This document shows positions 6,555-56,702 of a stretch of 64,000 bases of DNA, one piece after another (the stretch's first letter is position 1; each line of letters opens with the position of its first letter). The notes under the pieces were generated by a model. That model had not been told where the DNA came from. It did no database searches and saw only the letters and a list, made by a program, of their open reading frames with translations. The DNA comes from Clostridia bacterium (GTDB taxonomy: Bacteria > Bacillota > Clostridia > Christensenellales > CAG-138). Location of the stretch: positions 31,116 through 95,115 of the forward strand of contig JAFWMS010000002.1 of the NCBI GenBank assembly GCA_017545535.1, given 5' to 3'. Both the position numbers and the translations under genes were made by a program.

Positions 6555-6583
6555 TTGCCACAGCGGCGAAAACCCGGTATACT
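6555..6583 (+). promoter_or_regulatory. Promoter of bcp
   Basis: -35 TTGCCA at 6555-6560, a 17-nt spacer, then -10 TATACT at 6578-6583. Confidence 0.5.
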
Positions 6584-6617
6584 GATATCACTATTGGTAT
6601 ACGAGGAGGAAACAGCC

Positions 6618-7082
6618 ATGTTGACGGCAGGCATGCGGGCCCCGGATTTCGCTTTGACAGACAAGGACGGAAACACGGTCCGCCTTTCGGACTTTTTGGG
6701 CCGGAAGGTGGTTCTTTATTTCTATCCCAAGGACAACACCCCCGGCTGCACCCGGCAGGCCTGCGCTTTCGCCGGCGCCTACGACGCCTTTCGGGCGAAG
6801 GATGTGGCGGTGATCGGCATCAGCCGGGATTCCGTGGCCTCCCACGTGAAGTTCGCGGAAAAATACGCTCTCCCCTTCCTGCTCCTCTCCGACCCGGAGC
6901 GGCAGGCCATCGAAGCCTACGGCGTCTGGCAGGAGAAGAAGAACTACGGCAAGGTGTCCATGGGCGTGGTCCGGTCCACCTTTATCATCGACGAAAAGGG
7001 CGTCATCGAGAAGGTCATGCCCAAGGTGAAGCCGGACACCAACGCCGCCGACATTTTGGCCTATCTGAACGGCGAAAAGTGA
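6618..7082 (+). CDS. bcp: Thioredoxin-dependent thiol peroxidase (Bcp/PrxQ peroxiredoxin)
   Basis: Internal ATG 6618 of ORF 5973..7082, with SD gaggagga upstream. MRAPDFALTDKDGN..VVLYFYPKDNTPGCTRQAC is the Bcp active-site region. Confidence 0.9.
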   Translation: MLTAGMRAPDFALTDKDGNTVRLSDFLGRKVVLYFYPKDNTPGCTRQACAFAGAYDAFRAKDVAVIGISRDSVASHVKFAEKYALPFLLLSDPERQAIEAYGVWQEKKNYGKVSMGVVRSTFIIDEKGVIEKVMPKVKPDTNAADILAYLNGEK

Positions 7083-23068: not shown

Positions 23069-24394
23069 TTAAACCACCAGATCCCCTTCCTCGGAGTTGA
23101 TCACCTCAAAGATCTGCTCCTCCTCGCCGGTGAGGGCGTTGATGTAGACGATGTAGAAGGTGCCGTCCTTCGTGGCCTTGAACTCGTAGCAGAGGACCTC
23201 CGTCTGCTGGGTCAGAGGGATGAGGGCAAGATCCGTGTGCTCTACCTTCAGCTCCCCGGACACATACGCCCCGGCCTGCTCCTCGGTGAGCTTCGGCCGC
23301 GGCAGCGCCCGCTGCCGGTGGTTCAGCCGGTAGTTCCTGGCGTCCAGGCCCATGACCTCCCCGGTCTCCCGGTCCATATACACCTTCACGAGGTCGCTGT
23401 ACAGGATCACTCCCGCCTGCCGGGGCGCGAAGTTCAGCACCGCCGCCCCCTGGTAGTACTGGGCGTAGGCCGCCGCCGGGTCCTCGATGCCCAGCTCCTG
23501 CAAAAAGGACAGGGCGGTTTCCTTCAGCTGCAGGCTCTCTTGGTCGCTGGGCGGATCGTTTTTGTCCCCCGTGGGCGCGCCCATAAAGGAGAGCAGCTCC
23601 CCGCCCTGCTCTGTCAGCGACAGGGACACCTGCCCCCGGCTGGGGCTCTGCACGCTCAGTTCGTAGACCGGCAGCGCCCCGGGCACGTAGACCGTGTCCG
23701 CCACGGTCCCGTCGGAGAACAGCCGCCTGGCCCGTTCCGCCGCCTGCTGGGCCGTGATCCGTTCCCCGATCTCCCCCTGGGGCGGCCGGTTCTCCGCGCT
23801 CTCGGAGAAGGGCCCGTCGTAGATCAGCGTGGGGTACTCGCTGATGGCCGCCTCGCTTTGGCTCTGCTCATAGCAGCCGGCGTCCACGTTGTCCGCCGCC
23901 ACGTAGTCCCCGCTTTGGATGGCCTCGCCGGCCACCTGCCGGATCTGGGCGCAGGCGGCCCGCATGTCGCCGAGCTGCTTTCTATCCTCCTCCGTCAGCG
24001 TCCGGCCCTGGAGTACTCGACCCATGAGGGCGTGGGCGTAATCCCCACAGCGGGTGACGAACTGGCTCATGTCGCAGCTGTCCGCGTGGGAGAGGGGCAA
24101 AAGCCCCATGGCCGCCCCCGCGCTGCCCGTAGCCCGCCACACGTCGCCCAGCAGCAGCACGCTTTGTCGCGGCGAGGACGCCGCCGAAAGCTTCGACAGC
24201 GACACGTCCACGTCGTTCAAATCGTCGTCGATCCGGCGGTACAGATTCTCGATCCGGGTCCGCTCCGCCGCCTGCCGGGCCGCCAGGGCCTCCCGGTTCT
24301 CGCCCAGCTTCACCAAAGCTGCAACAAGCCCCACCGCCAGGGCCGCCCAAATTAGTCTTCTCAATCCTTTTCTCATATCATTTACCTTTTTCAA
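23069..24394 (-). CDS. ypeB: Germination protein YpeB
   Basis: 441 aa with an N-terminal TM helix. LLLGDVWRATGSAGAAMGLLPLSH and the C-terminal EVLCYEFKATKDGTFYIVYINALTGEEEQI parallel B. subtilis YpeB (PepSY repeats). Confidence 0.85.
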   Translation of the reverse strand: MKKVNDMRKGLRRLIWAALAVGLVAALVKLGENREALAARQAAERTRIENLYRRIDDDLNDVDVSLSKLSAASSPRQSVLLLGDVWRATGSAGAAMGLLPLSHADSCDMSQFVTRCGDYAHALMGRVLQGRTLTEEDRKQLGDMRAACAQIRQVAGEAIQSGDYVAADNVDAGCYEQSQSEAAISEYPTLIYDGPFSESAENRPPQGEIGERITAQQAAERARRLFSDGTVADTVYVPGALPVYELSVQSPSRGQVSLSLTEQGGELLSFMGAPTGDKNDPPSDQESLQLKETALSFLQELGIEDPAAAYAQYYQGAAVLNFAPRQAGVILYSDLVKVYMDRETGEVMGLDARNYRLNHRQRALPRPKLTEEQAGAYVSGELKVEHTDLALIPLTQQTEVLCYEFKATKDGTFYIVYINALTGEEEQIFEVINSEEGDLVV

Positions 24395-24609
24395 TAGCAG
24401 AACACGTGGTTGCCGATCCTAAGCGCCACGGGCTTGGAGAGCATCCACTTGTTGGTGGTGTTCGCCGGGTTGTAGTAGTACAGGCACCCGTAGGTGGGGT
24501 CGTACCCGTTCATGGCGTCCCGGGCCGCCCTAAGCGCCGTTTCGTTGGGCCCCAAGTCGATCTGCCCGTCGCTCACCGCGTCGAACGCCCCGGGCTGAGA
24601 GAAGGTTTG
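24391..24609 (-). pseudogene. sleB: 5'-truncated sleB (spore cortex-lytic enzyme); only the C-terminal ~70 codons remain
   Basis: The minus-strand frame reads TGA(24610-24612)-QTFSQPGAFDAVSDGQIDLGPNETALRAARDAMNGYDPTYGCLYYYNP..IGNHVFCY. This is the C-terminal half of the SleB/CwlJ Hydrolase_2 domain. It overlaps the ypeB start by 4 nt. There is no N-terminal half, signal peptide or promoter. Confidence 0.8.
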
Positions 24610-24708
24610 TCAAGTATAGTTTTACAAAAAATCATCCTCGCTTTGGCTGAATTTCGACATAAGTGGCAATAGAAAAGACTAAGTACTTACCAATGAAAGT
24701 AAAGCAAA

Positions 24709-24948
24709 GCGCCACCCGATGGGTGGCGCTTTCCTTTGGTCTCCCCGGCGGGATCCGAGCCAACGGCCTTCCGCTTAGGAGAACTGCGACTACGCATGGC
24801 TGATAAAGTTAGACGGCATATGGAAAAACCTGAAAAACCCAGTAATTTAGGGCAAAATCGACATTGTATACTATGCTCATTCAAATCACTCTATGATAGC
24901 ATGCTCATGCAAAGTACAGTCAAAATGCAGTCAAAAGTGCAGTCATTT
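24709..24948 (-). repeat. Module copy 1: GC-rich hairpin, tRNA 3'-half relic, conserved spacer, 3 direct repeats T(G/A)CAGTCA
   Basis: Hairpin GCGCCACCC-gat-GGGTGGCGC at 24709-24729. tRNA half at 24737-24781. Shared blocks GCTGATAAAG and AATTTAGGG. Repeats at 24915-24948 with an 11-12-bp period. The module is homologous by eye to 48770-49020. Confidence 0.7.
24737..24781 (-). other. Decayed 3' half of a tRNA-Arg(CCU)-like gene (anticodon loop to CCA), no 5' half
   Basis: The minus strand reads CTCCTAA GCGGA AGGCC GTTGG CTCGGAT CCCGC CGGGGAG A CCA. The layout is canonical but the T-arm is mutated relative to copy 2. Confidence 0.6.
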
Positions 24949-24949
24949 A

Positions 24950-25294
24950 ATGGAGACGGTTGTCAGCCTTTCCAAGGGTGAGATATCGAGCAAACCCGTC
25001 CGTGTCGAGTTCTCTCTGGAAGGCCTGGACACCTCCTGTCTGCTGAACGACGCCACCTATCAGCAGATCAAGGATTACGTCCTTGAGCACATAGGACTGC
25101 ATGTCTCAACTCTGTACATCGCCCAGGTGAAGGCGAAGCATGGGATCATCGAGCGGGAGTGCTATAACAAGGCGAAGACGGAGGGAAACCGTGTGCCGAA
25201 ATGTCCGCCGGAGAAGGAGAAGGCCATTGAGGAGGCGCTGAGACATTTTCAGATGATTCCGGAAGATCAAGGTTCTTCCATTCCTGCTCAGTAA
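24950..25294 (+). CDS. Small conserved protein of a type I recall from Firmicutes mobile elements (function unknown)
   Basis: ORF 24893..25294. The conserved-looking core is STLYIAQVKAKHGIIERECYNKAKTEGNRVPKCPPEKEKAIEEALRHFQMI. The start is uncertain because no clear SD precedes ATG 24950. Confidence 0.45.
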   Translation: METVVSLSKGEISSKPVRVEFSLEGLDTSCLLNDATYQQIKDYVLEHIGLHVSTLYIAQVKAKHGIIERECYNKAKTEGNRVPKCPPEKEKAIEEALRHFQMIPEDQGSSIPAQ

Positions 25295-25363: not shown

Positions 25364-25600
25364 ATGTACAACTCATTTAACAACATGTGGAATTGGGACT
25401 ATATCCAACAGCAGCAAGCACTTCAGCATCATCAGAATCAGGTTTATCAGATAGCTGATTGCGCCAAGAAACTGAAAGACTTTCTTGAAAGCGCAGAGAA
25501 AATCGATCCTTCTTATGAAAAAGCCGCTTTTGAGGCATGTTGTGCCGTATTGCTTGACCACGCAAACAAGCAACGCAAAGCCAATAACATGTGGCATTGA
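25364..25600 (+). CDS. Hypothetical 78-aa protein
   Basis: A good SD (taggagaactcaag) precedes the ATG and composition is AT-rich. I recognised no motif. Confidence 0.45.
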   Translation: MYNSFNNMWNWDYIQQQQALQHHQNQVYQIADCAKKLKDFLESAEKIDPSYEKAAFEACCAVLLDHANKQRKANNMWH

Positions 25601-35372: not shown

Positions 35373-35828
35373 TCAGCGCTCGACGATCAGCTCTTCTTCA
35401 CCGCCCTCGGGAATCAGAACGCGCTGCAGCGCGATCACACGTCCCTCGCTATCAAGATACTCCCGCTCGAGACACAGGGCGGCGCGCTCCTCCCTGAGCC
35501 GCAGGATGCGCAGATCGCGCCGCTCAAGCTCGACAAGCTCAAGACTCTGGCGTGCTGTATGAACGCCCGGGAGGGGCAGCTTCCACAGCGAGCCGCGTTC
35601 GGGCAGCGGCACCCGCTTCCGTTCGGTGCCGTGTCCGGGCAGCACCAGTTCCTCAAGGAACAGCGGATCCCCACCTCGGCTGTAAAGACGGCGCAAGCAC
35701 AAAAGCTCCTCCTCCTCGCTGACGGAAAAGCGAGCGGCGTAATACGTGCCCGCCGGGCGAAGCTGCCGGCTGCAGGTCCTCATGCGCAGACGCTCGGCGT
35801 CAACGGAGGGACTGGAATAAGCGTTCAT
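35373..35828 (-). CDS. Stand-alone UTRA-like (GntR/HutC effector) domain protein without HTH
   Basis: 151 aa. The pattern ...LLCLRRLYSRGGDPLFLEELVLP...ALCLEREYLDSEGRVIALQRVLIP resembles UTRA beta-strands. No room or frame exists for an HTH. Confidence 0.45.
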   Translation of the reverse strand: MNAYSSPSVDAERLRMRTCSRQLRPAGTYYAARFSVSEEEELLCLRRLYSRGGDPLFLEELVLPGHGTERKRVPLPERGSLWKLPLPGVHTARQSLELVELERRDLRILRLREERAALCLEREYLDSEGRVIALQRVLIPEGGEEELIVER

Positions 35829-36649: not shown

Positions 36650-37324
36650 TCAAAGCAGCAGACGTATCCTGTCTGGCCGCAGGATCACGCGGTGGTTTTC
36701 CCTCAGAGATCCATCGTCCTCATACCCGAAGCCGCAGACCTGGATCAGCGCTTTCCCCTCCGGAACAGAGAGCAGCGCAGCCTCTTCCTTCCGTGCACGC
36801 AGGATGCCGATACGAAGCGGCCCCGCTTCGCTGTGGGGAGCGGCCATTGCGGAGAGCAGCGCGGCGCCGCGTCCATCGCATTCTTCGCCTGGCGCGTACC
36901 GCAGGACGCGGCTCTCCAGTGCGATCGGCGTCCGTTCCGAGCACCACAACGCCCGAACGTCAAGCCACTCGCCGCCCTCCTTTTCCGGAAGGGGGAGCTT
37001 CGGCGAATGCTCCCAGACGTCCAGCAGCTCACCGTGCGGGCGCAGCGCTTTTCGGCGCAGCGTTTCATACAGACTCTCTTTGCCCGCCGCGTTCCATTCC
37101 GGACGAGGCGGCGCCACCGTATAGCCCGAGCCGCCCAAAGCGACGAGCCGTCCCGCAGCGGTAAGACGCTGCAGCGCTGTGCGCAGCGTGCCGCGGCTGA
37201 CTCCCCATTTTTCGCACAGAAGGCGCTCGCTTGGCAGCCTCCTGCGCGGGGGAAGGGAAAGGAGAAGGACTTCCAGTGACTCCGCGGCGAACTCGCCCGG
37301 AGTGGGCACACGCGACATTTTCAT
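36650..37324 (-). CDS. GntR/HutC-family regulator
   Basis: HTH is LPSERLLCEKWGVSRGTLRTALQRLTAAGRLVALGGSGYTV, with a UTRA-like C-half. The likely start is ATG 37324 after ggagggagaagg (the ORF extends to 37357). Confidence 0.75.
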   Translation of the reverse strand: MKMSRVPTPGEFAAESLEVLLLSLPPRRRLPSERLLCEKWGVSRGTLRTALQRLTAAGRLVALGGSGYTVAPPRPEWNAAGKESLYETLRRKALRPHGELLDVWEHSPKLPLPEKEGGEWLDVRALWCSERTPIALESRVLRYAPGEECDGRGAALLSAMAAPHSEAGPLRIGILRARKEEAALLSVPEGKALIQVCGFGYEDDGSLRENHRVILRPDRIRLLL

Positions 37325-37416
37325 CCTTCTCCCTCCTTCTGCCCCCCACCGCGGCAAAAGGCTTGCCGCGGCGGGGCGTATTGCTTGTTGCTTGATTTGC
37401 TTCTGATCTTCTCAGA

Positions 37417-46870: not shown

Positions 46871-48418
46871 ATGGGAAAAGCTTATTTTGTCGGCATCGAT
46901 ACCGGCACCAATTCCAGCAAGGGCGCTCTCATCGGCGAGCAGGGCGAGATTCTCGCCCTGCACAGCACGGAGCACAGCATGGAAAATCCCCAGCCCGGTT
47001 ACTACGAGCATGACGCCGAGCGCGACTGGTGGGGTGATTTCTGTACGATCAGTCGGGAACTGCTGCGCAAGAGCGGCGTGGACGCGAAGGACGTCAAGGC
47101 TGTCGGGATCAGCGCGCTCGGCGCAGATTGCGTTCCGGTGGACGAACATTGCCGCCCGCTTCGCAAAGCAATCCTCTACGGCATCGACGCGCGGGCCACG
47201 GATGAGATGGCTGAACTGACCGCGCTCTACGGGGAGGAGCAGATCCTGAAATGGTACGGCCGTCCGCTCTGCTCCAGCGACGTGATGCCGAAGATCCTGT
47301 GGATCAAGCGCAGGGAGCCGGAGGTCTACGCCAGGACGCACAAGTTTCTCACGGGATCGAGCTACATTACCGCCAAGCTGACAGGCCGCTATGTCGTGGA
47401 CCGTTTTCTCGGCCTGGCCAGCTTCAATCCGCTGTATGATCCGCAGACACGCAAGCCGGTTCCGGAGTACTGCGCGCCGATCTGCCGACCGGACCAGCTT
47501 GCCGAAATCCTCGAGGCGGCGGAGGTCGCAGGCACCGTGACGGCCGAGGCCGCCGCCGAGACGGGGCTTGCCGAGGGGACGCCGGTCATCACCGGAACGG
47601 ACGATTCGGGCGCCGAGGCGATCAGCTGCGGCGTCGTGGAGAGCGGGAAAATGATGCTGCAGCTGGGCTCGTCAGTCTACATGATCCTCGGCACAGACAG
47701 CCTGATCGACGACGAGCGGCTCTGGCGCGAGGAGTTCATCGTCCCCGGCTTATGCGATATCTCGGCCGGAACCAACACGGCGGGCAGCCTGACCAAATGG
47801 TTCCGCGACGAGCTGTTTCCGGACGCCCTTGCCGCCGAGCGCTCGGGCGGAGAAAACGCCTATCAGCGCATGTTGGAGGGCGTTGCGGAGATCCCGCCCG
47901 GCAGCGAGGGGCTGATCACGCTGCCCTACTTTGCCGGGGAGCGGACGCCGATCAACGACCCCGACGCCCGCGGCGTGCTCTTCGGGCTGACGCTGCAGCA
48001 TACGCGCGCGCATCTCTACCGCAGCGCACTGGAGGCGGTCGGCTTTTCCGTCAATCAGCAGATTCGAATCATGGAATCCCATCCCGAGGCGCGCATCGAC
48101 CGGATCATCGCCGTTGGCGGCGGCGCGCAGAATCCGATTTGGATGCAGATTATCGCCGACATTCTCGGCAAGGAGATCTCAACGCCGCAGGTGACGGTCG
48201 GCGCCTGCTACGGCGATGCGCTGATGGCGGCGCTGGGCGTCTCTTTTCCGGGCTTTGAGAACTATGCCGCGCTGACGCGCTATGTCCGCGCCGGCAGAAC
48301 TTACGCGCCCGATCCGAAAGCGCACGCGGCGTATGAGCAATATCAGGCAGTCTACGACGCGCTGTACGATTCTACAAAGGAACTGGCGCACAAGCTCAGT
48401 TCTTTTGTAAGAGGATAG
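46871..48418 (+). CDS. FGGY-family carbohydrate kinase
   Basis: ATG 46871 lies inside ORF 46667..48418. YFVGIDTGTNSSKGALI.. and ..VGGGAQNPIWMQIIADILG are FGGY signatures. Confidence 0.85.
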   Translation: MGKAYFVGIDTGTNSSKGALIGEQGEILALHSTEHSMENPQPGYYEHDAERDWWGDFCTISRELLRKSGVDAKDVKAVGISALGADCVPVDEHCRPLRKAILYGIDARATDEMAELTALYGEEQILKWYGRPLCSSDVMPKILWIKRREPEVYARTHKFLTGSSYITAKLTGRYVVDRFLGLASFNPLYDPQTRKPVPEYCAPICRPDQLAEILEAAEVAGTVTAEAAAETGLAEGTPVITGTDDSGAEAISCGVVESGKMMLQLGSSVYMILGTDSLIDDERLWREEFIVPGLCDISAGTNTAGSLTKWFRDELFPDALAAERSGGENAYQRMLEGVAEIPPGSEGLITLPYFAGERTPINDPDARGVLFGLTLQHTRAHLYRSALEAVGFSVNQQIRIMESHPEARIDRIIAVGGGAQNPIWMQIIADILGKEISTPQVTVGACYGDALMAALGVSFPGFENYAALTRYVRAGRTYAPDPKAHAAYEQYQAVYDALYDSTKELAHKLSSFVRG

Positions 48419-48711
48419 CATGGAAGAAACAGCACCTTCGTTTTGGAGGACAACCACTGGCTATGCCATTGGGAAAAAGTGCTTTAGCAATGGACAAAAA
48501 GAAAGCTCCCCATTTGAGTAGTTGAATAGTATGCACTCCTGTCGAACCATACATTACATTCTTAGGAGCACATGAAGCATGCGTTAAAAAAGTCAGATAT
48601 TTAGGGACAAATGTTTATTATGAAAAATGAGTGTGTGCCTTTGATGCCGTATAATCATTGCCTCAAAAATACAATCGTTACAGCTGAAATAATGGGTACT
48701 CTTTCAAAAAA

Positions 48712-49020
48712 TGCAGTCAAAAGTGCAGTCAAAACTCTTTGTAGCCCTGTTTTTGTGAAACAGGAAACAGAAAAAAGTCCCTAATTTAGGGACTTTTTTG
48801 GCCTCCCCGGCGGGATTCGAACCCACGGCCTTCCGCTTAGGAGTACTGTATTCGAAGGTAGCTGATAAAGCCAGACAGCGTCTAGGTTTTTTCAAAAAAA
48901 CCACTGAATTAGGTAAAAATAACGTTTGTTCACCATGAGAATTCTGCGAACTCTGCATCAGTTTGCTCACGCATTGTGCAGTCAAAATGCAGTCAAGTGC
49001 AGTCAAAAGTGCAGTCAAAT
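48712..49020 (-). repeat. Module copy 2 (attP-like): 2 direct repeats, AT-rich hairpin, intact-looking tRNA-Arg(CCU) 3' half, conserved spacer, 4 direct repeats
   Basis: TGCAGTCAAAAG/TGCAGTCAAAAC at 48712-48735. Hairpin AAAAAGTCCCTA/TAGGGACTTTTT at ~48770-48798. tRNA half at 48798-48842. TGCAGTCAA(A)n x4 at 48977-49020, all in the same orientation. Confidence 0.7.
48798..48842 (-). other. 3' half of a tRNA-Arg(CCU)-like gene (anticodon loop to CCA), no 5' half
   Basis: The minus strand reads CTCCTAA GCGGA AGGCC GTGGG TTCGAAT CCCGC CGGGGAG G CCA. This gives loop, anticodon-stem 3' strand, variable loop, T-arm, acceptor 3' strand, discriminator and CCA. The upstream sequence cannot form the acceptor, D or anticodon 5' strands. 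Confidence 0.65.
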
Positions 49021-49101
49021 TCAAACCCTCACATATCCTTTCACAGAGCGACTTCCAAGTATGTTTTACTGTTTGTTTTTTCTTCTAGAAGATTAACTGT
49101 A

Positions 49102-49130
49102 TGGACTGTTGCGCCTGTTCCTGATATACT
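49102..49130 (+). promoter_or_regulatory. Promoter of the 1235-aa gene
   Basis: TGGACT at 49102-49107, a 17-nt spacer, then extended -10 TGaTATACT at 49122-49130. SD aaaggagaa precedes ATG 49180. Confidence 0.5.
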
Positions 49131-49179: not shown

Positions 49180-52100
49180 ATGTCAAAACCATTCCCCGAT
49201 ATAACATGGCCAGTCTTTGAAGTATGCAATGCGAATAAGACAAAAGCCTTTGAAGATATGACACGAAAGCTTTTTAATTCTTATTTGGCGGGAAATCAAA
49301 CGTTAGTTTCAGATGGGATTAATCCGGGAATTGAGGTATTGCCGGTTTTGGAACCTGAAGCAAAAGATGATGCGCAAAGAAGATGGATTAGTTTTCAATC
49401 TAAGTACTTTGAAAAAAACACGAATTATAAGGACATTCTGGATTCTGCAAAACAGATAGTTAAGCATTATAAAGGTAAACTTGATTTAGTGTATTTGTTT
49501 TGTAATAATTCCCTTAAGATCTCATGTGATGGATACAAATCAGTTAAAAATCTGCTTGCAGAGGCGGGAATAGAACTACACCCAATAACCAACGAAATGA
49601 TTCTTGATCTTGTTTCCAAGTATCCTGAAATATATAATTATTATTTTCGGCCAAGAGATATCCCCGATTGTTCTCATGATAATCAATCTAGTTTCACGAT
49701 TGATCAAATAGTGTATTCGCTGAAAAACAGCCTAGATGCTGGGAAAATGCCTCCGCAAGATCCTGCTCTTTTAGTTGGTCTTATTCAAGAGAAGCTTGAT
49801 GTTTGCCGAGGTTTTGTTCTTAATATGGAACTGGATCAATTAAAACAGGAATTAGAAAAACTATTTTCTCATGATTTATGCGGAGTTGAGGGAAGTGACA
49901 CCTTACTGTTTTATCAGAACATTCTGAATATACATGAAAGAAAACCCATTCAAAATACGAACACTGATTTGATGCATAATGCAGAAATTGAATGGTTGAA
50001 AGCATTTTATGAAAATACATATGCTATTTCATTTGAGGAGTTCAATAAATACTCGGATGAAATTAGAATTCTCGTAATAGACCAATTGTTTGTCACAAAG
50101 CATTGGAACACGATAATATCTCTTCATGATCAATCGCTTACTCTGGGGAGTGCATGGGAACAGATGGAGCTTTACTATGGCCTCTCACTCTTCAATCTGC
50201 AGCGTTATGAAGAAGCAAGTGCCGTATTACATGGTTTGTTTGAAAAAACTAAGTGTCCAGCGCATGAAATGTATTCTAAGTTTGCGGATATTCAAGTTAT
50301 AAACAGTTTGTTCAGAACAGGAATGAATGCAAATGCCGATATGCTTGCCGAACTGGTCTCTTCTTTAGATGCCTATAAATGCATTAAGCAATATCAAGCA
50401 TCTGATCTTTTGATAGCCTTGCTGACCTTGGAGTCGTATTGTTATCTTGGGTTATCAAAAAAAGAGTATTTGGAAAAGGCCATTTCAACATATGACTCTT
50501 TTTCTGAGAGTGTACGCCTTAATGATATCGTTCGATTCTACTATGCATTATCCGTTGAACTTAATGGGAACATAGATAAAGCGCTAGAACTATATGAAAC
50601 GATGGAATGGAAAGATGACGAAACCATTGCGTATAGATACCTGTTCTGCCTAATCATGATCGGGCAAACCGAAACAGCCTATCAGAAATTCTATCTATTA
50701 CATGATGTTGCAAAAACAGAAAGGATATATGCACTTTCTTTGCTTGCTCTTCATAAAACAGACGTACAGATGGCTCGAAGTCTAGCAAAGAAGTGGCTTG
50801 AAGGGCATTCCAGCGATTTTTTGAGTATTGTTTCATTCATCGTGTATGTGGAAGATCGCGAGATTATTTCTTCGTTGATAATGCCACAATTACATGAGCT
50901 TATGACAACAGAAAGAATATCTTGTTTACCTTTTCGTCAACGTATTGAACTGATTATTTGGTTAGCTCAAAACATTGAAATTGAATTGATGGAACAAGTA
51001 CTTAAAACGATTGATGATGTTAATAACCTGAATGAATCGACAATAGTAGGAATATACCGGTCTTTAGCAGCAGCATGTGAAAAACCGAATGTTTTTATCA
51101 ACCCGATTCTTGAACCAACTACTATAGCCAAGTCAATTGAAACAATTACTGACAGATTCCTTAATGCAGGGATAAACAGAGAATTGTTTTTGCGAATCAA
51201 AATAGCGTGTGTCAATGCCAGACAAAGTTATATTAGCGCATTACAGTATTCAAAAGAATTGTTTGAACTTACTCAAGACGAAACAACCGCTAAAAACATA
51301 ATTAGTATTCTGGTATTACGTAAAGATAGTAATGAAACTGATTATCACCCATATATTGACATTTTGAAGGATTCTGAAGAACCTGACCAATGCATTACTG
51401 TTGCAGCAGGTTTATTGATGATAGGAAAGGAACAAGAAGCTGATTTATACGCATATAAAGCTATTTACTATTTAAACGGAAAAGATGACTTCAGTATCTA
51501 CAATAGTTTCTTTCAACTTGATAGTTTCAAAATGAGGTGGTTACAGGAGGATGAAGTCGTGCCCATTCGTTCTTCAAAGGGAAATGTGATTGTTACCCTC
51601 GAAGCATCTTCTTCAACTACCCAAGAAGCAAAAATGGACGTATGCCTGGATTCAGAAAAAGAATTCTCGCAAGACGGAAATAGAAGCATGGGTGTCTGCC
51701 ATATAAACTCAACAGATACAGATTATCTCAAAATCAAAAGTGCTGGACTGAATCAAGTTATAAAGCTAAAAAACGGAACATTTCAAGTAAAAAGAATCAT
51801 CCCCAGGAAAAAATTCTGCAGGGCTTTTGTGTTTAGCAAATTGCAGGCAAACCAAGAGTATTTTTCTGGGGTGATTATTTCCACGTTGCCTGAAAACCCA
51901 AAGGAAGCAATAGAACAGCTCCGAAAGCTTAGCGACAGGTCTGAACAAGCAAATACGAACCTGAAGATGTATCATTTTGAAGATAGTACCAATCTTGGCC
52001 TGCCAATTGAAGTTGTTGGATTTATGGATTATGATCGCTATCTTGGTACATCAAAGTATTTATTATTTCAACCTGATGAAGCTTTTTATTCTGGTGAAGT

Positions 52101-52887
52101 TGTTTACAGGTTTGATAGTGGAGAAGGTTTGAAGTATGTCATTACACTTTCAACTCTTGTGCTACTTAGCATATTAAATAGACTTGATGTTCTGGATGTA
52201 ATTAAGCAGAACATTATTATTCCAAAGAGTTATCTTCCTTTTTTTCATGATTTATTTGAAAAGGCACTTAATGATCAAGCAATGGACGCCAAAACGCTCT
52301 ATTTCGATGGAGATAAAACCATATTGTCTGACCAAGACCCCACTATCCCCGAAATATGGGAACGGATAGTACGTTTCTGCGACGATTGCGAAACTTATGA
52401 AATAATAGATCAAGAACGAATAGATTATTACATTCAAGAGTCATTAAGAGGTGAAGACTTATTATCAGCATTCAAATTGAACGTTATTCAATTAGATGCT
52501 TTGATACTATCAAGCAGAGAGTCTGCGATGTATCTATGTGATGATCTCTTTTTTCGTAAATTAGCCAACTGGGCTGGCATCAAACACTGTAATACAGCTT
52601 CGCTCCTATTGCTACATGACGATCAAGAATATATCGATTCATTTGTGAAGGAACTATCAAAAACGAACTATATATATGTACCTTTGGCAGGGGTTTCATT
52701 CAGCACAATCCAAGCGATGCAGGATGATATGTTAACTGGTAAAAGAAAAAAAGAACTGAACGCAGGGTGGATCCATCAATACTATGCTGCAAGAGAAGCT
52801 GTTCTAAACGAATTAATTAAGGATGAATTGTTCCATATGCAAATAGTGGATAATACCGATGAGTCAGTGACGGATGATAATAGTTAA
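49180..52887 (+). CDS. Orphan 1235-aa protein: Mrr-like PD-(D/E)xK nuclease head, long TPR-like helical region, GreA/B-C-like beta domain, PIN-like C-terminal domain (candidate defence/conflict effector)
   Basis: aa 23-145: FEDMTRKLF..SDGINPGIEV..WISFQSKYF..LVYLFCNN..IELHPITNEMILDLV follows the Mrr_cat pattern. aa ~300-780 are helix-repeat rich. aa 791-875 have GreA C-terminal-like spacing. aa 985-1130 (KYVITLSTLVLL .. QLDALILSSRESAMYLCDDLFFRKLA) are PIN-like. No GxxxxGK[ST] is present. Confidence 0.55.
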   Translation: MSKPFPDITWPVFEVCNANKTKAFEDMTRKLFNSYLAGNQTLVSDGINPGIEVLPVLEPEAKDDAQRRWISFQSKYFEKNTNYKDILDSAKQIVKHYKGKLDLVYLFCNNSLKISCDGYKSVKNLLAEAGIELHPITNEMILDLVSKYPEIYNYYFRPRDIPDCSHDNQSSFTIDQIVYSLKNSLDAGKMPPQDPALLVGLIQEKLDVCRGFVLNMELDQLKQELEKLFSHDLCGVEGSDTLLFYQNILNIHERKPIQNTNTDLMHNAEIEWLKAFYENTYAISFEEFNKYSDEIRILVIDQLFVTKHWNTIISLHDQSLTLGSAWEQMELYYGLSLFNLQRYEEASAVLHGLFEKTKCPAHEMYSKFADIQVINSLFRTGMNANADMLAELVSSLDAYKCIKQYQASDLLIALLTLESYCYLGLSKKEYLEKAISTYDSFSESVRLNDIVRFYYALSVELNGNIDKALELYETMEWKDDETIAYRYLFCLIMIGQTETAYQKFYLLHDVAKTERIYALSLLALHKTDVQMARSLAKKWLEGHSSDFLSIVSFIVYVEDREIISSLIMPQLHELMTTERISCLPFRQRIELIIWLAQNIEIELMEQVLKTIDDVNNLNESTIVGIYRSLAAACEKPNVFINPILEPTTIAKSIETITDRFLNAGINRELFLRIKIACVNARQSYISALQYSKELFELTQDETTAKNIISILVLRKDSNETDYHPYIDILKDSEEPDQCITVAAGLLMIGKEQEADLYAYKAIYYLNGKDDFSIYNSFFQLDSFKMRWLQEDEVVPIRSSKGNVIVTLEASSSTTQEAKMDVCLDSEKEFSQDGNRSMGVCHINSTDTDYLKIKSAGLNQVIKLKNGTFQVKRIIPRKKFCRAFVFSKLQANQEYFSGVIISTLPENPKEAIEQLRKLSDRSEQANTNLKMYHFEDSTNLGLPIEVVGFMDYDRYLGTSKYLLFQPDEAFYSGEVVYRFDSGEGLKYVITLSTLVLLSILNRLDVLDVIKQNIIIPKSYLPFFHDLFEKALNDQAMDAKTLYFDGDKTILSDQDPTIPEIWERIVRFCDDCETYEIIDQERIDYYIQESLRGEDLLSAFKLNVIQLDALILSSRESAMYLCDDLFFRKLANWAGIKHCNTASLLLLHDDQEYIDSFVKELSKTNYIYVPLAGVSFSTIQAMQDDMLTGKRKKELNAGWIHQYYAAREAVLNELIKDELFHMQIVDNTDESVTDDNS

Positions 52888-52927
52888 AATATCACTCTAT
52901 CATTTACATATCGATCTTTAGACAATA

Positions 52928-53573
52928 CTATGCAAGTATTGGCACAACGCTCGTCTGTAAATCCGGTATTATACTAGAGATATCCGTATCTGGAGATAGC
53001 CATTCCTCTGCCCTACTGTAAGGCACAATAACCGGCATGCGCGGATGAATCTCCCGGATGTTGGATGCAGCATCCTGTGACAGTATAGAGAAGCAGGGCA
53101 GTCGCTGCTGATCGGATGTCTTAATGTACAGACCTGCCAAGTACAAAGGTTCTCGATTCTCAGCATAGAAAGCGTATTTATCTTTTTTGTTCTTGTCTGT
53201 CTTATGCCACTCAAAGTAGCAGGAGGCCGGAATCAGGCAGCGCCGGTCGTTGATGCTGGTGCAGAATAGCGCCTTTTGCGGTTTCGTTTTTCAGCTCCAG
53301 AGTTGCGGTTTCACTGCGGGTGTTAAATACCAGCATGCCTTTGGTTGGATGATTGAAACCCCATTGCATGGGGAACGCTCCAATCTTCCGATGAGCCGCG
53401 GATGGGGCAATGACCGGGGCTATACAGATTCCTTGATCCAAGAACGCGATGTTCATGAAGAGAAATTCCGCAAACCAAGCAGGAAATTCCACTCTGATTG
53501 GGAGCTTGCCAATTTCTGCCATGGTGGCGATTTGGACGAAGATTGATGACTTAATAATTGTATTTATTTCCAC
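52928..53573 (-). pseudogene. Decayed SOS-response-associated peptidase (SRAP/YedK-like) gene
   Basis: The upstream frame gives APVIAP..FPMQWGFN..VFNTRSETA. The downstream frame gives RRCLIPASCYFEW..LYLAGLY..FSILSQDAASNIREIHPRMPVIV. The frameshift is near the A5 run at ~53,290. The N-terminus reads KSSIF where the catalytic MCGRF is expected, and there is no Met start. Confidence 0.7.
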
Positions 53574-53602
53574 CGCCCCGCAGGGGATGACTGCGGGGCG
53601 GT
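53572..53602. other. Boundary hairpin H1
   Basis: ACCGCCCCGCAG-gggatga-CTGCGGGGCGGT, a perfect 12-bp stem, lies exactly at the AT-rich to GC-rich transition. Confidence 0.8.
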
Positions 53603-53653
53603 GCTATGTCAGCCGGAATATAGCCGCCGCGCCATTGATTTTTCCCGGGGAGG

Positions 53654-53662
53654 TGATATACT
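53654..53662 (+). promoter_or_regulatory. Extended -10 (TGaTATACT) upstream of the MATE gene
   Basis: Sequence match only. Confidence 0.4.
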
Positions 53663-53696
53663 TTTGTCAGCAAATCCATCCCGAGAGAGCGGCGAC

Positions 53697-55052
53697 ATGC
53701 AGAGTACCGACCACAAAACCAAACAGTATCTGATGACGGAGGGGCCCATCCACCAACGGGTCCTGCGCTACGCGATCCCGGTGTTCATCGGGTATCTGTT
53801 CCAGCAGCTGTACAACACCGCCGACGCGCTGATCGTGGGGAACCTGGTGGGGCGCAACGCCCTGGCCGCCGTGACCAGCACGGGCTCCATCGTCTATTTG
53901 GCCGTGGGCACCTTCACCGGGTTCTCCATGGGCGCGGGCATCGTGATCGCCCGGTATATCGGCGCGGAGGATTCGGAGAAGACCTCCCAGACCGTCCACA
54001 CGGCCGTGGCCATGGGGCTGTTCTTCAGCGTGCTCTTCACGGCGCTGGGGGTCCTGTTCTCGCCGGTGATCCTGCGTGCCATGGGTACGCCGGAGGACGT
54101 GTTCGCCGACGCGGCCCTGTATCTGAAGATCTATTTCGCAGGCTGCACAGGCCTGGTCATGTACAACATCTTCGTGGGCATCCTGCAGGCCAGCGGCGAC
54201 TCCACCCATCCCCTCTATTACCTCATCACCAGCTCCGCCATCAACGTGGTCCTGGACATCACCCTGATCGGCGTCTTTCACATGGGCGTGGACGGGGCGG
54301 CTCTCGCCACCATCGTGTCCCAGGGGATCGCCGCGCTGCTGGTCATGATCCGCCTGCTGCGCCAGTCCGGGGACATCCGCATCTCGTTCCGCAAGATCGG
54401 GTTCCACTGGCGGCGGCTCCGGGAGATCGTGCTGTTCGGCCTGCCCACAGCGGTGCAGAACACGGTGATCGACTTTTCCAACGTGCTCATTCAGTCCTAT
54501 ATCAACTCCTTCTCCGCCGCTGCCATGGCGGGCATCGGCGCCTATGCTAAGGTGGAGGGCTTCGCCTTCTTGCCGGTCACGGCTTTCTCCATGGCCATGG
54601 CCACCTTCATCTCCCAGAACATCGGCGCCCAGAAGCTGGACAGGGTGAAGGAGGGCATCCGCTTCGGCCTGCTCTGCTCCGTGGCGGCTGTGGAGGTCGT
54701 GGGGATCATCATGTTCCTCTTCGCGCCCCAGCTGGTGGCCGCCTTCAACCAGGACCCCAACGTCATCGCCTACGGGGTGCTCCGGGGCCGGGTCTGCTCC
54801 TTGTTCTTCTGCCTGCTGGGCTTTTCCCACGTGTCCGCCGCCGTGTTCCGGGGCCTGGGCAAGCCCATGGTGCCCATGCTGGTCATGCTGATCTGCTGGT
54901 GCGCCGTCCGGGTGCTGGTGCTGATGACCATCGGGCAGATCTACCACAACATCCTGCTGGCCTGCTGGATCTACCCTATCACCTGGGGCATGAGCACCGT
55001 CGTGGACCTTGTCTATCTCGGCCACGTGCGCAAGAAAGGGTACGCCCTGTAG
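53697..55052 (+). CDS. MATE-family transporter
   Basis: The likely start is ATG 53697 (ORF from 53601). RVLRYAIPVFIGYLFQQLYNTADALIVGNLVG is a MATE signature, with 12 TM helices. Confidence 0.8.
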   Translation: MQSTDHKTKQYLMTEGPIHQRVLRYAIPVFIGYLFQQLYNTADALIVGNLVGRNALAAVTSTGSIVYLAVGTFTGFSMGAGIVIARYIGAEDSEKTSQTVHTAVAMGLFFSVLFTALGVLFSPVILRAMGTPEDVFADAALYLKIYFAGCTGLVMYNIFVGILQASGDSTHPLYYLITSSAINVVLDITLIGVFHMGVDGAALATIVSQGIAALLVMIRLLRQSGDIRISFRKIGFHWRRLREIVLFGLPTAVQNTVIDFSNVLIQSYINSFSAAAMAGIGAYAKVEGFAFLPVTAFSMAMATFISQNIGAQKLDRVKEGIRFGLLCSVAAVEVVGIIMFLFAPQLVAAFNQDPNVIAYGVLRGRVCSLFFCLLGFSHVSAAVFRGLGKPMVPMLVMLICWCAVRVLVLMTIGQIYHNILLACWIYPITWGMSTVVDLVYLGHVRKKGYAL

Positions 55053-55145
55053 CGGGCAAAGCCCTTCAGTCTGGTAAAAAACTAAAGCAAAAAGGATACG
55101 CCCTGTGAGCGGCGTATCCTTTTCTGCAATCGTATTTGCGCTGCT

Positions 55146-55787
55146 TTAGTCCAGCAATCCCTTGTCGATGATCTGGAAGTTGGCCCGGTGGATATAGAGG
55201 GCCTTGCCGTCGATCATGAGCTTGGTGAACTTGGGCAGATCCTCCTGGACCTCCCAATAGACCTTGTTCCCGGAGAAAGCGTAGATGGGCGCGCCCATCT
55301 GGGACTTGATGACCACCACCATGGGCTTGCCGAAGGCGTTTTTGATGCTGTTCACCTTGCCGGCGATCAGCACCGAATCCATGATCCCCGACGAGGAGCT
55401 GTCGATGTCGTCCAGATAGAATTCATACTCCGGGGAAAGCCGCGTGTCGTAGAAGATGCAGGTGTCGCCGCAGGAAATGAGCTGCTTCCCGTCGATAGTT
55501 ATGGTGATGACGGAGCTCAGCGTCTTGGTGGTGAGCCAGCCGTTGGAATCCGAGGAATAGGACGTCTCCTCCACCACGTTGTTGTCGATGTCGATCTTCT
55601 CCCCGTGGGTCCTGAGAGTGCGGATGCCCATGTTGTCGAAGATGTCAATGTTGTATTCGTTTCCGAAGATGCTGCCGTGCAGGTCGTGGATGCCGCTTTT
55701 GAGCATGGAGCAGCCGGCTTGTCCCACCGCCAGCAGCAGAATCAGGACCAGTGTCGCGATCCTCCGTTTCATCTTTCCGCTTTTCAT
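55146..55787 (-). CDS. Lipoprotein of unknown function
   Basis: Lipobox LLLAVGQAGC. The 213-aa protein is beta-rich. Confidence 0.6.
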   Translation of the reverse strand: MKSGKMKRRIATLVLILLLAVGQAGCSMLKSGIHDLHGSIFGNEYNIDIFDNMGIRTLRTHGEKIDIDNNVVEETSYSSDSNGWLTTKTLSSVITITIDGKQLISCGDTCIFYDTRLSPEYEFYLDDIDSSSSGIMDSVLIAGKVNSIKNAFGKPMVVVIKSQMGAPIYAFSGNKVYWEVQEDLPKFTKLMIDGKALYIHRANFQIIDKGLLD

Positions 55788-55895
55788 ATCGTTTTCTCCC
55801 TTGATTCGTCGTTATCCATGAGGATACCCCCTGTTTCGACCCTTGTCAATGGGGAGCAAGAGCGATTCTTTTGACCTCTACACTCAAAAAAACAA

Positions 55896-55934
55896 AAATT
55901 ATAGGTTGATTTTATCCTATAATTTGCGTATACT
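55896..55934 (+). promoter_or_regulatory. phd-doc promoter with a 10-bp inverted-repeat operator
   Basis: AAATTATAGG at 55896-55905 and CCTATAATTT at 55916-55925 bracket -35 TTGATT (55906-55911). A 17-nt spacer leads to -10 TATACT at 55929-55934. Confidence 0.6.
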
Positions 55935-55951
55935 GTTTTCGGAGGTACGAT

Positions 55952-56203
55952 ATGAACATAGATACCAACACCATTGCCACCATGACGGAGGCGAATCAAA
56001 ACTTTTCCCGCGTGGCGAAGAAGGCGGATCAGTATGGGGAGGCCATCATATTCAAGAACAACCGGCCCAAGTATCGGCTGATCGATCTGGAACAGGCGGG
56101 ATCGTCCCCGGATCGGGAGCTTACAGACGATGAAAAGATCGACATCGTGGCCCGGCAGATCCTGAAGGAATACAAACCGGCCTTTTTGGAGCTTGCCAAA
56201 TGA
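55952..56203 (+). CDS. phd: Phd/YefM-type antitoxin
   Basis: 83 aa. TMTEANQNFSRVAKKADQYGEAIIFKNNRPKYRLIDLE matches the Phd/YefM N-domain. It overlaps doc by 4 nt. Confidence 0.8.
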   Translation: MNIDTNTIATMTEANQNFSRVAKKADQYGEAIIFKNNRPKYRLIDLEQAGSSPDRELTDDEKIDIVARQILKEYKPAFLELAK

Positions 56204-56580: not shown

Positions 56581-56608
56581 AGAGTAAGCATCGAAGGCCT
56601 GATTTGCC

Positions 56609-56683: not shown

Positions 56684-56702
56684 CCACCCAAAACCATGAT
56701 AA

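Follow-up and report, generated by a model that had tools for sequence, protein, structure and literature searches.

The window, by which we mean the whole 64,000-nucleotide stretch of Clostridia DNA analysed here, carries two related modules, one at each end of a metabolic gene island (Table 1). The first, copy 1, contains the 240-bp stretch under study, and copy 2 lies 24 kb further along. The whole array sits inside a split sleB gene: when the intact 223-aa SleB of locus L073 was used as a tblastn query, only amino acids 156-223 were matched, and ypeB is the next gene. The short segment just past the sleB break is also common to strains and species without modules, and the variable region begins at 24632; loci L066-L072 align to the window as far as 24631 and then diverge. 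An earlier view of the copy 1 flank as plain chromosome beside ypeB was dropped, the flank lying inside the insertion that splits sleB. Relaxase and serine-recombinase genes neighbour the array (59710-63575), the large serine recombinase occupying 59710-61545. No tRNA or repeats were found past 64 kb, where all five contigs with the window's relaxase end about 3.8 kb on.

Table 1. Features of the split sleB locus and its array (positions are those of the window)
Feature	Coordinates	Strand	Basis or remark
ypeB, next after the sleB fragment	23069-24376		Pfam YpeB domains
sleB 3' fragment (codons 156-223 only), chromosomal border of the inserted region	24394-24597	-	tblastn
Conserved 34-bp segment just past the sleB break	24598-24631
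B'-type flank of copy 1, AT-rich, without TGCAGTCA repeats	24632-24736		terminator scan
Copy 1 module, whole	24706-24957		240-bp stretch under study, 24709-24948
Core of copy 1, displaced tRNA-Arg(CCU) 3' half running from the anticodon loop to CCA	24737-24781	-
Spacer of the copy 1 element-side (P) arm, 133 nt	24782-24914	+	alignment of nine distinct arms
Three direct repeats of copy 1, TACAGTCAAAA, TGCAGTCAAAA, GTGCAGTCA	24915-24945	+
Outer end of the conserved copy 1 arm (TTTAATGGAGAC)	24946-24957	+
Island X cargo	24958-48419		Pfam scans
Third, heavily decayed tRNA-Arg half, ending CTTAGGAG	about 48506-48567
Truncated arm of another type, joined to the third tRNA-Arg half	48568-48651
P' (integrase-proximal) type arm of copy 2	48652-48798	+	two repeats, 48712-48722 and 48724-48734
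Core of copy 2, intact-looking tRNA-Arg(CCU) 3' half	48799-48843	-
P arm of the next island, 133-nt spacer and four repeats	48844-49029	+	repeats, 48977-49020
First gene of the next (AT-rich) segment, 1235-aa protein	49180-52887	+	weak PIN-TPR matches

Read on the plus strand, the core of copy 1 corresponds to the 3'-terminal 45 nt of tRNA-Arg(CCU) in reverse complement, extending from the anticodon loop CTCCTAA to CCA. Its AT-rich flank terminates in a GC-rich bidirectional hairpin (24706-24732; terminator scan) and is kept beside sleB' in L022 and L030. The spacer on the element side contains the conserved blocks GCTGATAAAG (24799-24808), CCAGTAATTTAGGGCAAAAT (24839-24858, a AATTTAGGG-like block) and ACTATGCTCA. 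Beyond the outer end of the arm, the cargo of L022 and L058 departs from the window. The decayed version of the core is common to L001-L016 and L022, and an undecayed version is present in L030.

Copy 2 is a composite. Its P' arm, whose end overlaps an AT-rich terminator hairpin (48771-48799), shares 96% identity with the DNA downstream of L019's intact tRNA-Arg, and its core matches the 3' halves of the intact L019 and L063 tRNA genes without a single difference. Beyond the core, GCTGATAAAG recurs at 48861-48870. Just before the P' arm lie the remnants of a third junction, and the arm coming after the L063 core shows 87% identity to 48561-48651. BLAST searches of copy 2 against plasmids and phages gave matches limited to the 45-nt tRNA part. 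ARAGORN found no intact tRNA in the window; in relatives, the other end of the array carries an intact tRNA-Arg(CCU), a copy-2-type terminator and two repeats (L019, L024, L046, L057, L063, L064); in L046 it stands about 360 bp from sleB codon 156. One metagenome-assembled genome, RUG14781, holds both array ends (L022 and L046), and L079 shows the unoccupied tRNA-Arg(CCU) site, in the order murC, tRNA, mnmE.

The preliminary description of this DNA had proposed that the two copies bracket the metabolic island as direct repeats, and all the features on which it relied are in place. Segments 24737-24945 and 48799-49020 are co-oriented copies of one module, composed of a 45-nt tRNA half, a spacer and repeats; the spacing, first put at about 134 bp, is exactly 133 nt in both. 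The cores are identical at 41 of 45 positions, and three of the four differences fall in the T-arm (GGGATCCGAGCCAAC in copy 1, GGGATTCGAACCCAC in copy 2), the fourth beside CCA; the T-arm of copy 1 is thus mutated, as had been suggested. A 39-nt core pattern matches twice in the 64 kb, once in each module, with no match expected by chance. Confinement of the similarity to the tRNA-derived 45 nt, which would have counted against the proposal, was not observed: the spacers agree at 85 of 133 positions with gaps and 74 of 133 without, at a z-score of 6.5, and none of 500 shuffles reached the observed score. With up to one mismatch, TGCAGTCAAAA occurs seven times in the window against 0.63 expected, every time inside one of the two modules. 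The GC-rich hairpin of copy 1 and the AT-rich hairpin of copy 2 both score as minus-strand terminators just past CCA. The hairpin side of copy 1 has no repeats, as had been noted, whereas copy 2 has two there, so that the repeats number zero and three around the first core and two and four around the second. Each arm is closer to arms in other genomes than to its counterpart in the window.

Those other arms define a family with a constant architecture. In all nine distinct Arg(CCU) arms exactly 133 nt separate the core from the first repeat, even though the identity of the spacers drops to 56-70%. Every arm ceases to match tRNA directly behind CTTAGGAG, which in tRNA sense marks the anticodon loop's 5' edge; the position of this break was checked in the nine distinct arms and in arms of other families. 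Repeats occur on the element side only in junction copies and on both sides in attP-like copies, a pattern that holds across loci.

The repeats also keep company with integrase genes. At about 25 related loci they flank a tRNA-derived core and lie beside a tyrosine-integrase gene, at its 3' end, and because of this association the TGCAGTCAAAA repeats are most likely arm-type integrase sites, not operators; on this comparative basis, those at 24915-24945 would be integrase-binding sites of the same type. The motif is found at the 3' end of the gene in four integrase lineages, and the order of two repeats, tRNA-derived core and three to four repeats recurs in integrase-bearing lineages. A 389-aa tyrosine integrase (PF00589), whose nearest solved structure is Tn1549 Int, stops about 30 bp before two repeats at no fewer than 12 loci in Clostridia genomes, and a tRNA-Leu 3' end comes next. 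Loci L023 and L050 represent the matching junction, with an intact tRNA, a terminator and then four repeats. Among 17 viral contigs, 13 carry an integrase (27-30% identical) with two repeats in or just past its 3' end; in the viral contigs read, L098 and L085, two repeats lie inside the 3' coding end and three more about 150 bp later. P0329 has xis, int, two repeats and tRNA-Arg(CCG) in succession. In L101-L110 an integrase C-terminal remnant precedes two repeats, a terminator and the tRNA-Arg(CCU) core; there and in L038 only 70-95 aa of the integrase remain, and in related cassettes the remnant adjoins a truncated IS605-family OrfB (TnpB) gene. A literature search for the TGCAGTCAAAA motif returned incidental primers only.

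No tyrosine recombinase was detected in the window by Pfam analysis of the main ORFs of 20-64 kb, by tblastn with the L047 integrase or by a catalytic-motif scan. Likewise, no integrase gene stands beside an arm in any Arg(CCU)-type locus examined, although one is present in sister lineages. A word-index search starting from the L038 remnant yielded 86 homologs, all of 40-123 aa and none full-length. An exhaustive HMMER search did recover full-length relatives of up to 67% identity, and the two examined, P0328 and P0329, are located at tRNA-Arg(CCG); neither search returned a cognate integrase for the Arg(CCU) core.

The first description had also allowed that the repeats could be operators of a regulator shared by the genes at 24950 and 49180, in which case the tRNA halves would be incidental. 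Both repeat clusters do lie upstream of plus-strand ORFs, as had been stated, and an ORF (MTNTNITYTQQGDY...) which we take to be TnpV-like comes after four repeats in L023 and L050. The accompanying statement that both genes are AT-rich does not apply to 24950-25294, which has about 50% G+C. The geometry, however, is fixed with respect to the core and variable with respect to the genes: the start codon is 5 nt from the repeats in copy 1 and 160 nt in copy 2, and across the nine arms the genes are unrelated, yet the core is 133 nt away in every case. Near copy 2 a single promoter-like site was detected (49102-49130), downstream of the repeats, and none was found in copy 1. Further repeats stand across the core, where they face no gene, and inside integrase coding ends. 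A role as operators is consequently very improbable. Plasmid iterons and DnaA boxes were likewise rejected for lack of support, the motif travelling with integrases.

Between the two modules, island X encodes a 114-aa and a 78-aa ORF, GntR/UTRA regulators, an Opp-type ABC transporter, SIS, PfkB and FGGY kinases, amidohydrolases, xylose-isomerase-like proteins, an amino-acid permease, MatE and BtpA. All ORFs of the cargo with Pfam matches are metabolic, transport or regulatory, and in gene content the island is a cluster for using Amadori compounds or amino sugars. It holds no integrase or transfer genes and no remnants of integrase, relaxase, mobilisation or conjugation genes; the cargo was covered by Pfam scans and, for tyrosine recombinases, by tblastn and a motif scan.

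Comparison with other lineages, where the island is 99.4-100% identical and its flanks are 88% identical (left) or unrelated (right), shows that both copies mark the edges of an exchanged block. At the left edge, L011, L013 and L016 share 87.8% identity with the window over sleB' and flank; this rises to 100% in the core and arm and to 99.8-100% in the cargo, and the flank differs for the last time at 24700. The 85-nt block 24701-24785, which holds the switch between L011 and L022, is invariant in all three lineages, and homologous recombination within it would yield the same switch pattern. At the right edge, L062 matches the window at 99.4% identity over 48191-48844 and departs from it directly after core 2. 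L022 and L058 have arm and cargo in common and differ on their left sides. L101 and L106 share a cassette, integrase remnant and P' arm (about 99%), and their right partners differ from just past CGCTTAGGAG. The same cassettes thus occur in different flanks, and the same flanks with different cassettes, with the switch at the core.

A rival view is that the modules arose by internal duplication, or by homologous exchange of a repeat, without the action of an integrase, the island being ordinary chromosome between two repeats. The island's G+C (58-61%) near the host's 62%, the lack of an integrase in the window and an absence allele that arose by some other deletion would all suit such an origin. 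The spacers, however, are only 56-64% identical and yet of identical length, which speaks for old functional sites that evolved separately and against a duplication. Moreover, copy-1-type arms occur in other hosts at 88-89% identity with other tRNA halves, flanks and cargo, and the right end of island X is 100% identical in the L063 array, which ends at a murC-linked tRNA-Arg. The asymmetry between the copies also fits an attR (repeats on one side, foreign terminator) and an attP (repeats on both sides). We therefore regard such an origin as highly unlikely.

Strains without the interval (L066-L070) had been proposed as a place to look for a single hybrid module. In these strains 24632-53629 is absent, so that both modules and more are gone, and the absence allele is therefore not a product of recombination between copies 1 and 2. 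Their junction contains 131 unrelated bp, with no tRNA half and no hybrid module, and no precise excision product carrying a single hybrid site was found among them; theirs was the only absence allele found. This allele says nothing either way about the sites.

It is scarcely credible that the module specifies a minus-strand RNA of about 210 nt, either a tRNA-like ncRNA or an intron-containing tRNA-Arg, whose final part would be a tRNA-like T-arm, acceptor and CCA with the terminator behind it: both copies do have a terminator past the CCA end, and the conserved TTTCCCT block pairs with the 3' acceptor strand in RNAalifold, but no Rfam family reaches its gathering score in the window (group I introns included), the T-arm of copy 1 is broken, the nine-arm consensus fold, at -20.6 kcal/mol across 232 columns, is weak and its covariation term is +0.43, and compensatory changes appear only in the inherited T-arm and one 3-bp stem, the TTTCCCT/acceptor pairs never covarying. 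We also rejected a tRNA-Arg(CCU) interrupted by a group I intron, a fragment of tmRNA and other known RNAs, since Rfam and ARAGORN gave no hits and the tRNA 5' half is absent beyond the repeats.

Taken together, copy 1 is very probably an attR-type junction left by a tyrosine integrase of the lambda/Tn916 class, and copy 2 an attP-like junction between stacked islands. The comparative data, namely the link to integrases, the shared layout and the exchange at cores, agree with the original proposal of a displaced junction-type site and an attP-like copy. In this scheme, a tyrosine integrase would have inserted a circular element into a tRNA-Arg(CCU) gene, leaving copy 1. The attP of the element would have borne its own copy of the last 45 nt of the tRNA, with an integrase-proximal arm of two TGCAGTCAAAA repeats on one side and a distal arm, consisting of the 133-nt spacer and three to four repeats, on the other. 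Strand exchange at the 5' edge of the anticodon loop would join the element's tRNA half to the gene, and the original half of the host, together with its terminator, would end up at the opposite end of the element. Cut off from any tRNA, this displaced half would then have gained its three T-arm substitutions. A second insertion into the same tRNA would have created copy 2 from the P' arm of island X, the core and the P arm of the next island, and copies 1 and 2 are accordingly the two ends of island X (24958 to about 48650), which today is an integrase-less, CIME-like cassette. The anatomy, the architecture common to the family, the association with integrase genes and the exchange breakpoints at cores are direct observations; integrase binding to the repeats and a site-specific rather than homologous mode of recombination are inferred.

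Copy 1 is, in short, the worn end-junction of a 24-kb nutrient-utilisation block that a phage-type integrase in all probability inserted into an arginine-tRNA gene. Scars of this sort are commonplace and belong to a known kind of feature, tandem accretion of CIME-like elements. The junctions nevertheless mark the island as a horizontally exchanged unit with defined ends, and explain its presence or absence among strains of this ruminant-gut Clostridia lineage. What is new is an undescribed family of integrase-less cassettes stacking at tRNA-Arg(CCU) in ruminant-gut Clostridia.

The modules share several features with the att sites of heterobivalent integrases such as lambda Int and Tn916/Tn1549 Int, including a core formed by the 3' part of a tRNA, a homology break at the anticodon loop and an attP whose core has arm-type sites, in the form of short direct repeats, to either side. 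In lambda the integrase gene abuts one arm, and the same holds for relatives of the Arg(CCU) modules. The TGCAGTCAAAA motif and the fixed 133-nt spacer, by contrast, were not described in the literature searched, and no Arg(CCU) module examined has an integrase in cis.

Tandem accretion of CIMEs, as in ICESt1/ICESt3 of Streptococcus thermophilus (PMC5704250), similarly places successive elements at a tRNA 3' end, with a chimeric att site between neighbours. Island X resembles a CIME in having att sites at both ends and lacking integration and transfer genes. It differs in having no conjugation, mobilisation or integrase remnants. The complete cassettes seen between such modules, five in all, are purely metabolic and integrase-less. 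The arms, in addition, are 88-96% identical across hosts, and no functional partner ICE or IME of the same core specificity was seen. The tycheposons of Prochlorococcus offer a further parallel: repeated integration at one tRNA drives older elements inward, leaving only partial tRNA copies between neighbours and scattering degenerate remnants and extra partial tRNAs (bioRxiv 10.1101/2020.12.28.424599). Stacking at one tRNA, partial-tRNA separators and remnants are all seen in Arg(CCU) arrays. Tycheposons, however, were found by and carry integrases, which the Arg(CCU) units lack, and the host phylum and integrase lineage differ. The ssrA-specific genomic islands of Dehalococcoides (PMC3146451) use a different target gene from the Arg(CCU) arrays.

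It is possible, though doubtful, that the Arg(CCU) modules define integrase-less nutrient-utilisation cassettes of 4-24 kb, each with a complete attP and moved in trans by an integrase. Such a cassette would typically comprise a transporter, catabolic enzymes and a regulator, and its attP two repeats, a tRNA-half core, the 133-nt spacer and three to four repeats. The proposal draws on the absence of an integrase from five of five complete cassettes, on arms that stay similar across hosts with invariant spacing, on truncated-integrase cassettes joined to several partners exactly at the core, and on the near identity of island X where its flanks are 88% identical or unrelated. An integrase acting in trans might still insert, excise and shuffle cassettes at tRNA-Arg(CCU), giving an integron-like array built of lambda-type sites. 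If so, whole catabolic pathways could spread simply, with no recombinase of their own. The likeness to integron arrays, with their promoter-poor, recombinase-less cassettes carrying their own sites at one locus, is a functional analogy only: no intI/attI platform lies beside the array, the sites consist of core and arms rather than attC hairpins or palindromes, and the cassettes are multi-gene units of 4-24 kb with their own regulators.

The 20-mer TGCAGTCAAAAGTGCAGTCA, combined with the fixed geometry, provides a signature for finding such cassettes and integrases in gut metagenomes. The nesting of the array in a split spore-germination gene, sleB, ties this mobile DNA to sporulation genes. 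L041 and L045 are two stretches of one contig and, if contiguous, may form a 3.8-kb cassette.

The two modules that bracket the metabolic gene block (island X) were both found as the preliminary description had set them out, with tRNA halves, spacer blocks, repeats and terminator-like hairpins in place. In the left module, copy 1, positions 24737-24781 read on the minus strand as CTCCTAAGCGGAAGGCCGTTGGCTCGGATCCCGCCGGGGAGACCA, which is the last 45 nt of a tRNA-Arg(CCU), from the anticodon loop through the 3′ anticodon stem, variable loop, T-arm and 3′ acceptor strand to the CCA. The half in copy 2 (48799-48843) has a canonical T-arm (GTGGGTTCGAATCCCGC), from which copy 1 differs by three substitutions that break the T-arm; a fourth difference lies beside the CCA. 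Both are half genes, since ARAGORN detects no tRNA gene in the window and Rfam returns no family at its gathering score. To the right of each half, hereafter the core, a 133-nt spacer with sequence blocks common to both copies leads to TGCAGTCAAAA-type repeats. The seven matches to this motif, against 0.63 expected in the window, all fall within the modules. The proposed pairwise alignment shows that the copies resemble each other outside the tRNA part too, with 85 of 133 spacer positions identical when that part is left out (z 6.5, significant).

Coordinates, extents and contents of the features discussed
Feature	Position or locus	Size or number	Description
Terminator-like hairpin, copy 1	24706-24732		after CCA end; GC-rich
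Terminator-like hairpin, copy 2	48771-48799		after CCA end; AT-rich
TGCAGTCAAAA-type repeats, copy 1	24915-24945	3 units	right of 133-nt spacer
TGCAGTCAAAA-type repeats, copy 2	48977-49020	4 units	right of 133-nt spacer
Extra repeats, copy 2	48712-48734	2 units	opposite side of core
Island X	window	about 24 kb	metabolic, transport, regulatory genes
Island X ORFs 1 and 2	24950-25294, 25364-25600	114 and 78 aa	
1235-aa protein gene	from 49180		AT-rich, 35% G+C; weak PIN-TPR matches
Phd/Fic pair	about 56029-56697		
GmrSD	56962-59655		
Large serine recombinase	59710-61545		
L059 unit		10.5 kb	lactonase, TRAP transporter, LysR, PrpF, aconitase
L030-L020 unit		11.3 kb	Opp-type ABC transporter, amidohydrolase, RpiR, creatininase
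L063 Z unit		10 kb	other metabolic genes
L045-L041 unit		3.8 kb	if two stretches contiguous
Class (a)		≥12 loci	integrase beside 2 repeats
Class (b)	L023, L050		intact tRNA-Pro or tRNA-Leu, terminator, about 100 bp, four repeats
Class (c)	e.g. L019		intact tRNA-Arg(CCU), copy-2 terminator, two repeats
Class (d)			half tRNA-Arg, 133-nt spacer, 3-4 repeats; copy 1 layout
Viral in-gene repeats	L098 1440-1690, L085 1960-2210, L087 13490-13530		encode ...NAVKMQSN...
Integrase remnant	L101-L110; L038 3167-3379		beside Arg(CCU) P′ arms
sleB 5′ part	L024 741-1211, L046 741-1214, L057 4031-4504, L064 715-1110		
Intact sleB	L073 9319-9990	223 codons	uninterrupted, relative

Related loci (L-numbers) change partners at the cores. 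At the left edge, L011, L013 and L016 carry the sleB fragment and flank at 87.8% identity to the window, the last flank difference lying at 24700, whereas core and arm match it at every position (100%) and the first 0.9-1.5 kb of cargo at 99.8-100%. The L011 flank matches L022, which from the arm onward has a different arm variant and different cargo; L022 and L058 have arm and cargo in common and differ on their left sides. At the right edge, L062 is 99.4% identical to window 48191-48844 and diverges directly after core 2. The final 305 bp of island X recur at 100% identity in L063. After them come a P′ arm (the two-repeat, integrase-proximal arm) and a core, then a different arm, other metabolic genes over 10 kb, another P′ arm and, adjoining murC, an intact tRNA-Arg(CCU). 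A GH2/MFS/AraC cassette, an integrase remnant and a P′ arm are about 99% identical between L101 and L106, whose right-hand partners differ from directly after CGCTTAGGAG. The site is unoccupied in L079, which reads murC, tRNA-Arg(CCU), then mnmE. Together, the edge comparisons, core switches and unoccupied site identify copy 1 as an attR-type junction (flank, core and P arm, the latter being spacer plus repeats) and copy 2 as an attP-like junction between two stacked units.

The switch between L011 and L022 falls in an 85-nt block without any difference among the three lineages (window, L011 and L022). Homologous exchange within this block would look the same as site-specific recombination. 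An origin of both copies as integrase att junctions is very probable, and the att-site reading of the preliminary description is borne out by the switches at core edges together with the repeat and integrase layout in relatives.

Strains lacking the region do not owe its absence to recombination between the copies. In the closely related strains L066-L070 the sleB fragment is 99.6% identical to the window, yet 24632-53629 is missing, a 29-kb loss that takes in the two modules with island X between them and the PIN-TPR-like gene. The fragment is joined to MatE via 131 unrelated bp (L066 9547-9801), with neither a tRNA half nor a single hybrid module at the junction, which rules out a copy 1 by copy 2 product. 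MatE through the serine recombinase also lies beside the sleB fragment in L074-L076 (YpeB identity 81-82%), with other small inserts between.

The geometry of the arm is fixed. Each of the nine distinct Arg(CCU) arms has its first repeat exactly 133 nt past the core, with repeat offsets of 133/144/156 or 133/144/154/166, and this spacing is kept even where spacer identity drops to 56-70%. Two spacer blocks conserved among arms, CCAGTAATTTAGGGAAAAAT and ACTATGCTCA, may be candidate binding sites for accessory factors. The minus-strand consensus RNA fold is weak, with no covariation support.

A 20-mer common to all three repeat clusters, scanned against one genome per species, recovered 34 stretches, nearly all from rumen or gut Clostridia MAGs and falling into four classes (a-d). 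In class (a), the gene for a 389-aa tyrosine integrase (nearest solved structure Tn1549 Int) stops about 30 bp short of two repeats, and a tRNA-Leu 3′ end follows about 45 bp beyond. The class (c) locus L019 is 96% identical to window 48650-48843. Among viral contigs with a related 18-mer, 13 of 17 have an integrase, only 27-30% identical to that of class (a), with two repeats at or just past its 3′ end. In the contigs read (L098, L085, L087) these repeats lie inside the coding end, which couples the site to the protein C-terminus; L098 and L085, in which the sequence extends further, have three more about 150 bp on. A fourth integrase lineage (P0329) is arranged as xis, int, two repeats, tRNA-Arg(CCG). 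The layout common to the integrase lineages (integrase, two repeats, tRNA-derived core, 3-4 repeats) is that of an attP with arm-type sites, and TGCAGTCAAAA is therefore read, from its position, as the putative arm-type site of a broad integrase group. The integrases of these relatives lie beside the two-repeat arm, much as int of lambda abuts the P′ arm.

The window and the related loci yielded no integrase specific for the Arg(CCU) core, nor did the remnant's close database relatives. The remnant beside Arg(CCU) P′ arms comprises only about the last 135 codons of an integrase and is 55% identical to the viral type; its 86 close relatives (word-index homologs P0241-P0326) are all only 40-123 aa. 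It adjoins a truncated IS605-family OrfB (TnpB) gene in L101-L105 and L109, and lies behind a GDSL/GH2/MFS/AraC cassette in L101-L104, the loci with enough upstream sequence. At least three different partners are found joined to this cassette at the core. Full-length relatives of the remnant exist at up to 67% identity, and both of those inspected target tRNA-Arg(CCG).

Other arm families cross over at the same point of tRNA-Arg(CCU) (L041 6900-7047, L051 4100-4250, L101 about 6560-6800), which makes this gene a hotspot common to several element families. One has AATAAGTATATAT repeats, beside conjugation-type genes in L041, and another TGCAGTAAAT repeats. Downstream of an intact tRNA-Arg(CCU), L077 (8457-8700) carries a mini-insert some 150 bp long; a 17-bp direct repeat of the 3′ end of the tRNA (TCGCGCCGGGGACGCCA) bounds it, and a ParA/SpaA-bearing element comes next. 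The insert marks a second position for integration within the gene, and the terminator that follows it equals the flank of the L020 module.

All five complete units seen between two modules (the fifth if its stretches are contiguous) lack an integrase and carry nutrient-utilisation genes, and the arms are 88-96% identical across hosts. Integrase-less units with conserved arms fit what has been published on CIMEs and tandem accretion (PMC5704250), and the array of stacked elements and partial tRNAs resembles tycheposon islands (10.1101/2020.12.28.424599). The system is of a known kind, an integrase junction at a tRNA gene with tandem accretion and a CIME-like island. It is undescribed in three respects: the arm motif, the fixed 133-nt geometry and units consistently without an integrase. 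Because no member bears an integrase and the sites are conserved, mobilisation by an integrase supplied in trans is conceivable, if rather doubtful.

A tyrosine recombinase was not detected in any part of the 64-kb window. Left of copy 1 lies host-like DNA (62% G+C) with ypeB and a 61-codon sleB fragment; the genes between the copies are all metabolic, transport or regulatory. The 114-aa and 78-aa ORFs opening island X have no Pfam or NCBIfam match; the former has a single weak PHROG match of unknown function, and its ATG falls within the conserved arm end, 5 nt past the last repeat, with no visible ribosome-binding site. Further in, a truncated UTRA-domain ORF (35373-35828) precedes a second GntR/UTRA gene (36650-37357), near which scaffold_33 of one assembly, ERZ28655075, ends; this suggests an internal repeat or strain variation. 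The stretch 48506-48651 holds a third tRNA-Arg half, strongly decayed (CTCCCC...TCGAACC...CTTAGGAG), and after it a truncated arm of another type, 87% identical to the post-core arm of L063, where that arm carries GATGCCG repeats. These remains point to a putative further unit, mostly deleted, between island X and copy 2. To the right of copy 2 follow the 1235-aa gene, MatE, DUF5052, the Phd/Fic pair, GmrSD, a large serine recombinase, relaxase and MobC; 49180-59655 holds a defence-type cluster (PIN-TPR-like protein, Phd/Fic, GmrSD). In related species, different genes occupy the interval from Fic to the serine recombinase.

The intact-tRNA end of this strain's array is not reached on available contigs. 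The sleB fragment (24394-24597, conserved border to 24631), beside ypeB, retains codons 156-223 only, the gene being broken at codon 156. In L024, L046, L057 and L064, codons 1-156 are found about 360 bp away from an intact tRNA-Arg(CCU). The tRNA-Arg gene and the whole array therefore lie inside an insertion that splits sleB, a spore-germination gene; the insertion spans 40 kb or more and includes the large serine recombinase. Both junctions carry CTG (gggCTGagag and ctaCTGgtag, versus gggTTGgtag in the intact gene). The insertion could be a skin-like intervening element, or sleB could simply be disrupted. The tRNA-Arg(CCU) at the sleB locus (303-379 in both L024 and L046) has a G1-G72 mismatch (5′ acceptor GTCCCCG versus 3′ CGGGGAG), whereas the acceptor of the murC-linked gene (L019, L063) pairs normally (CTCTCCG/CGGGGAG).
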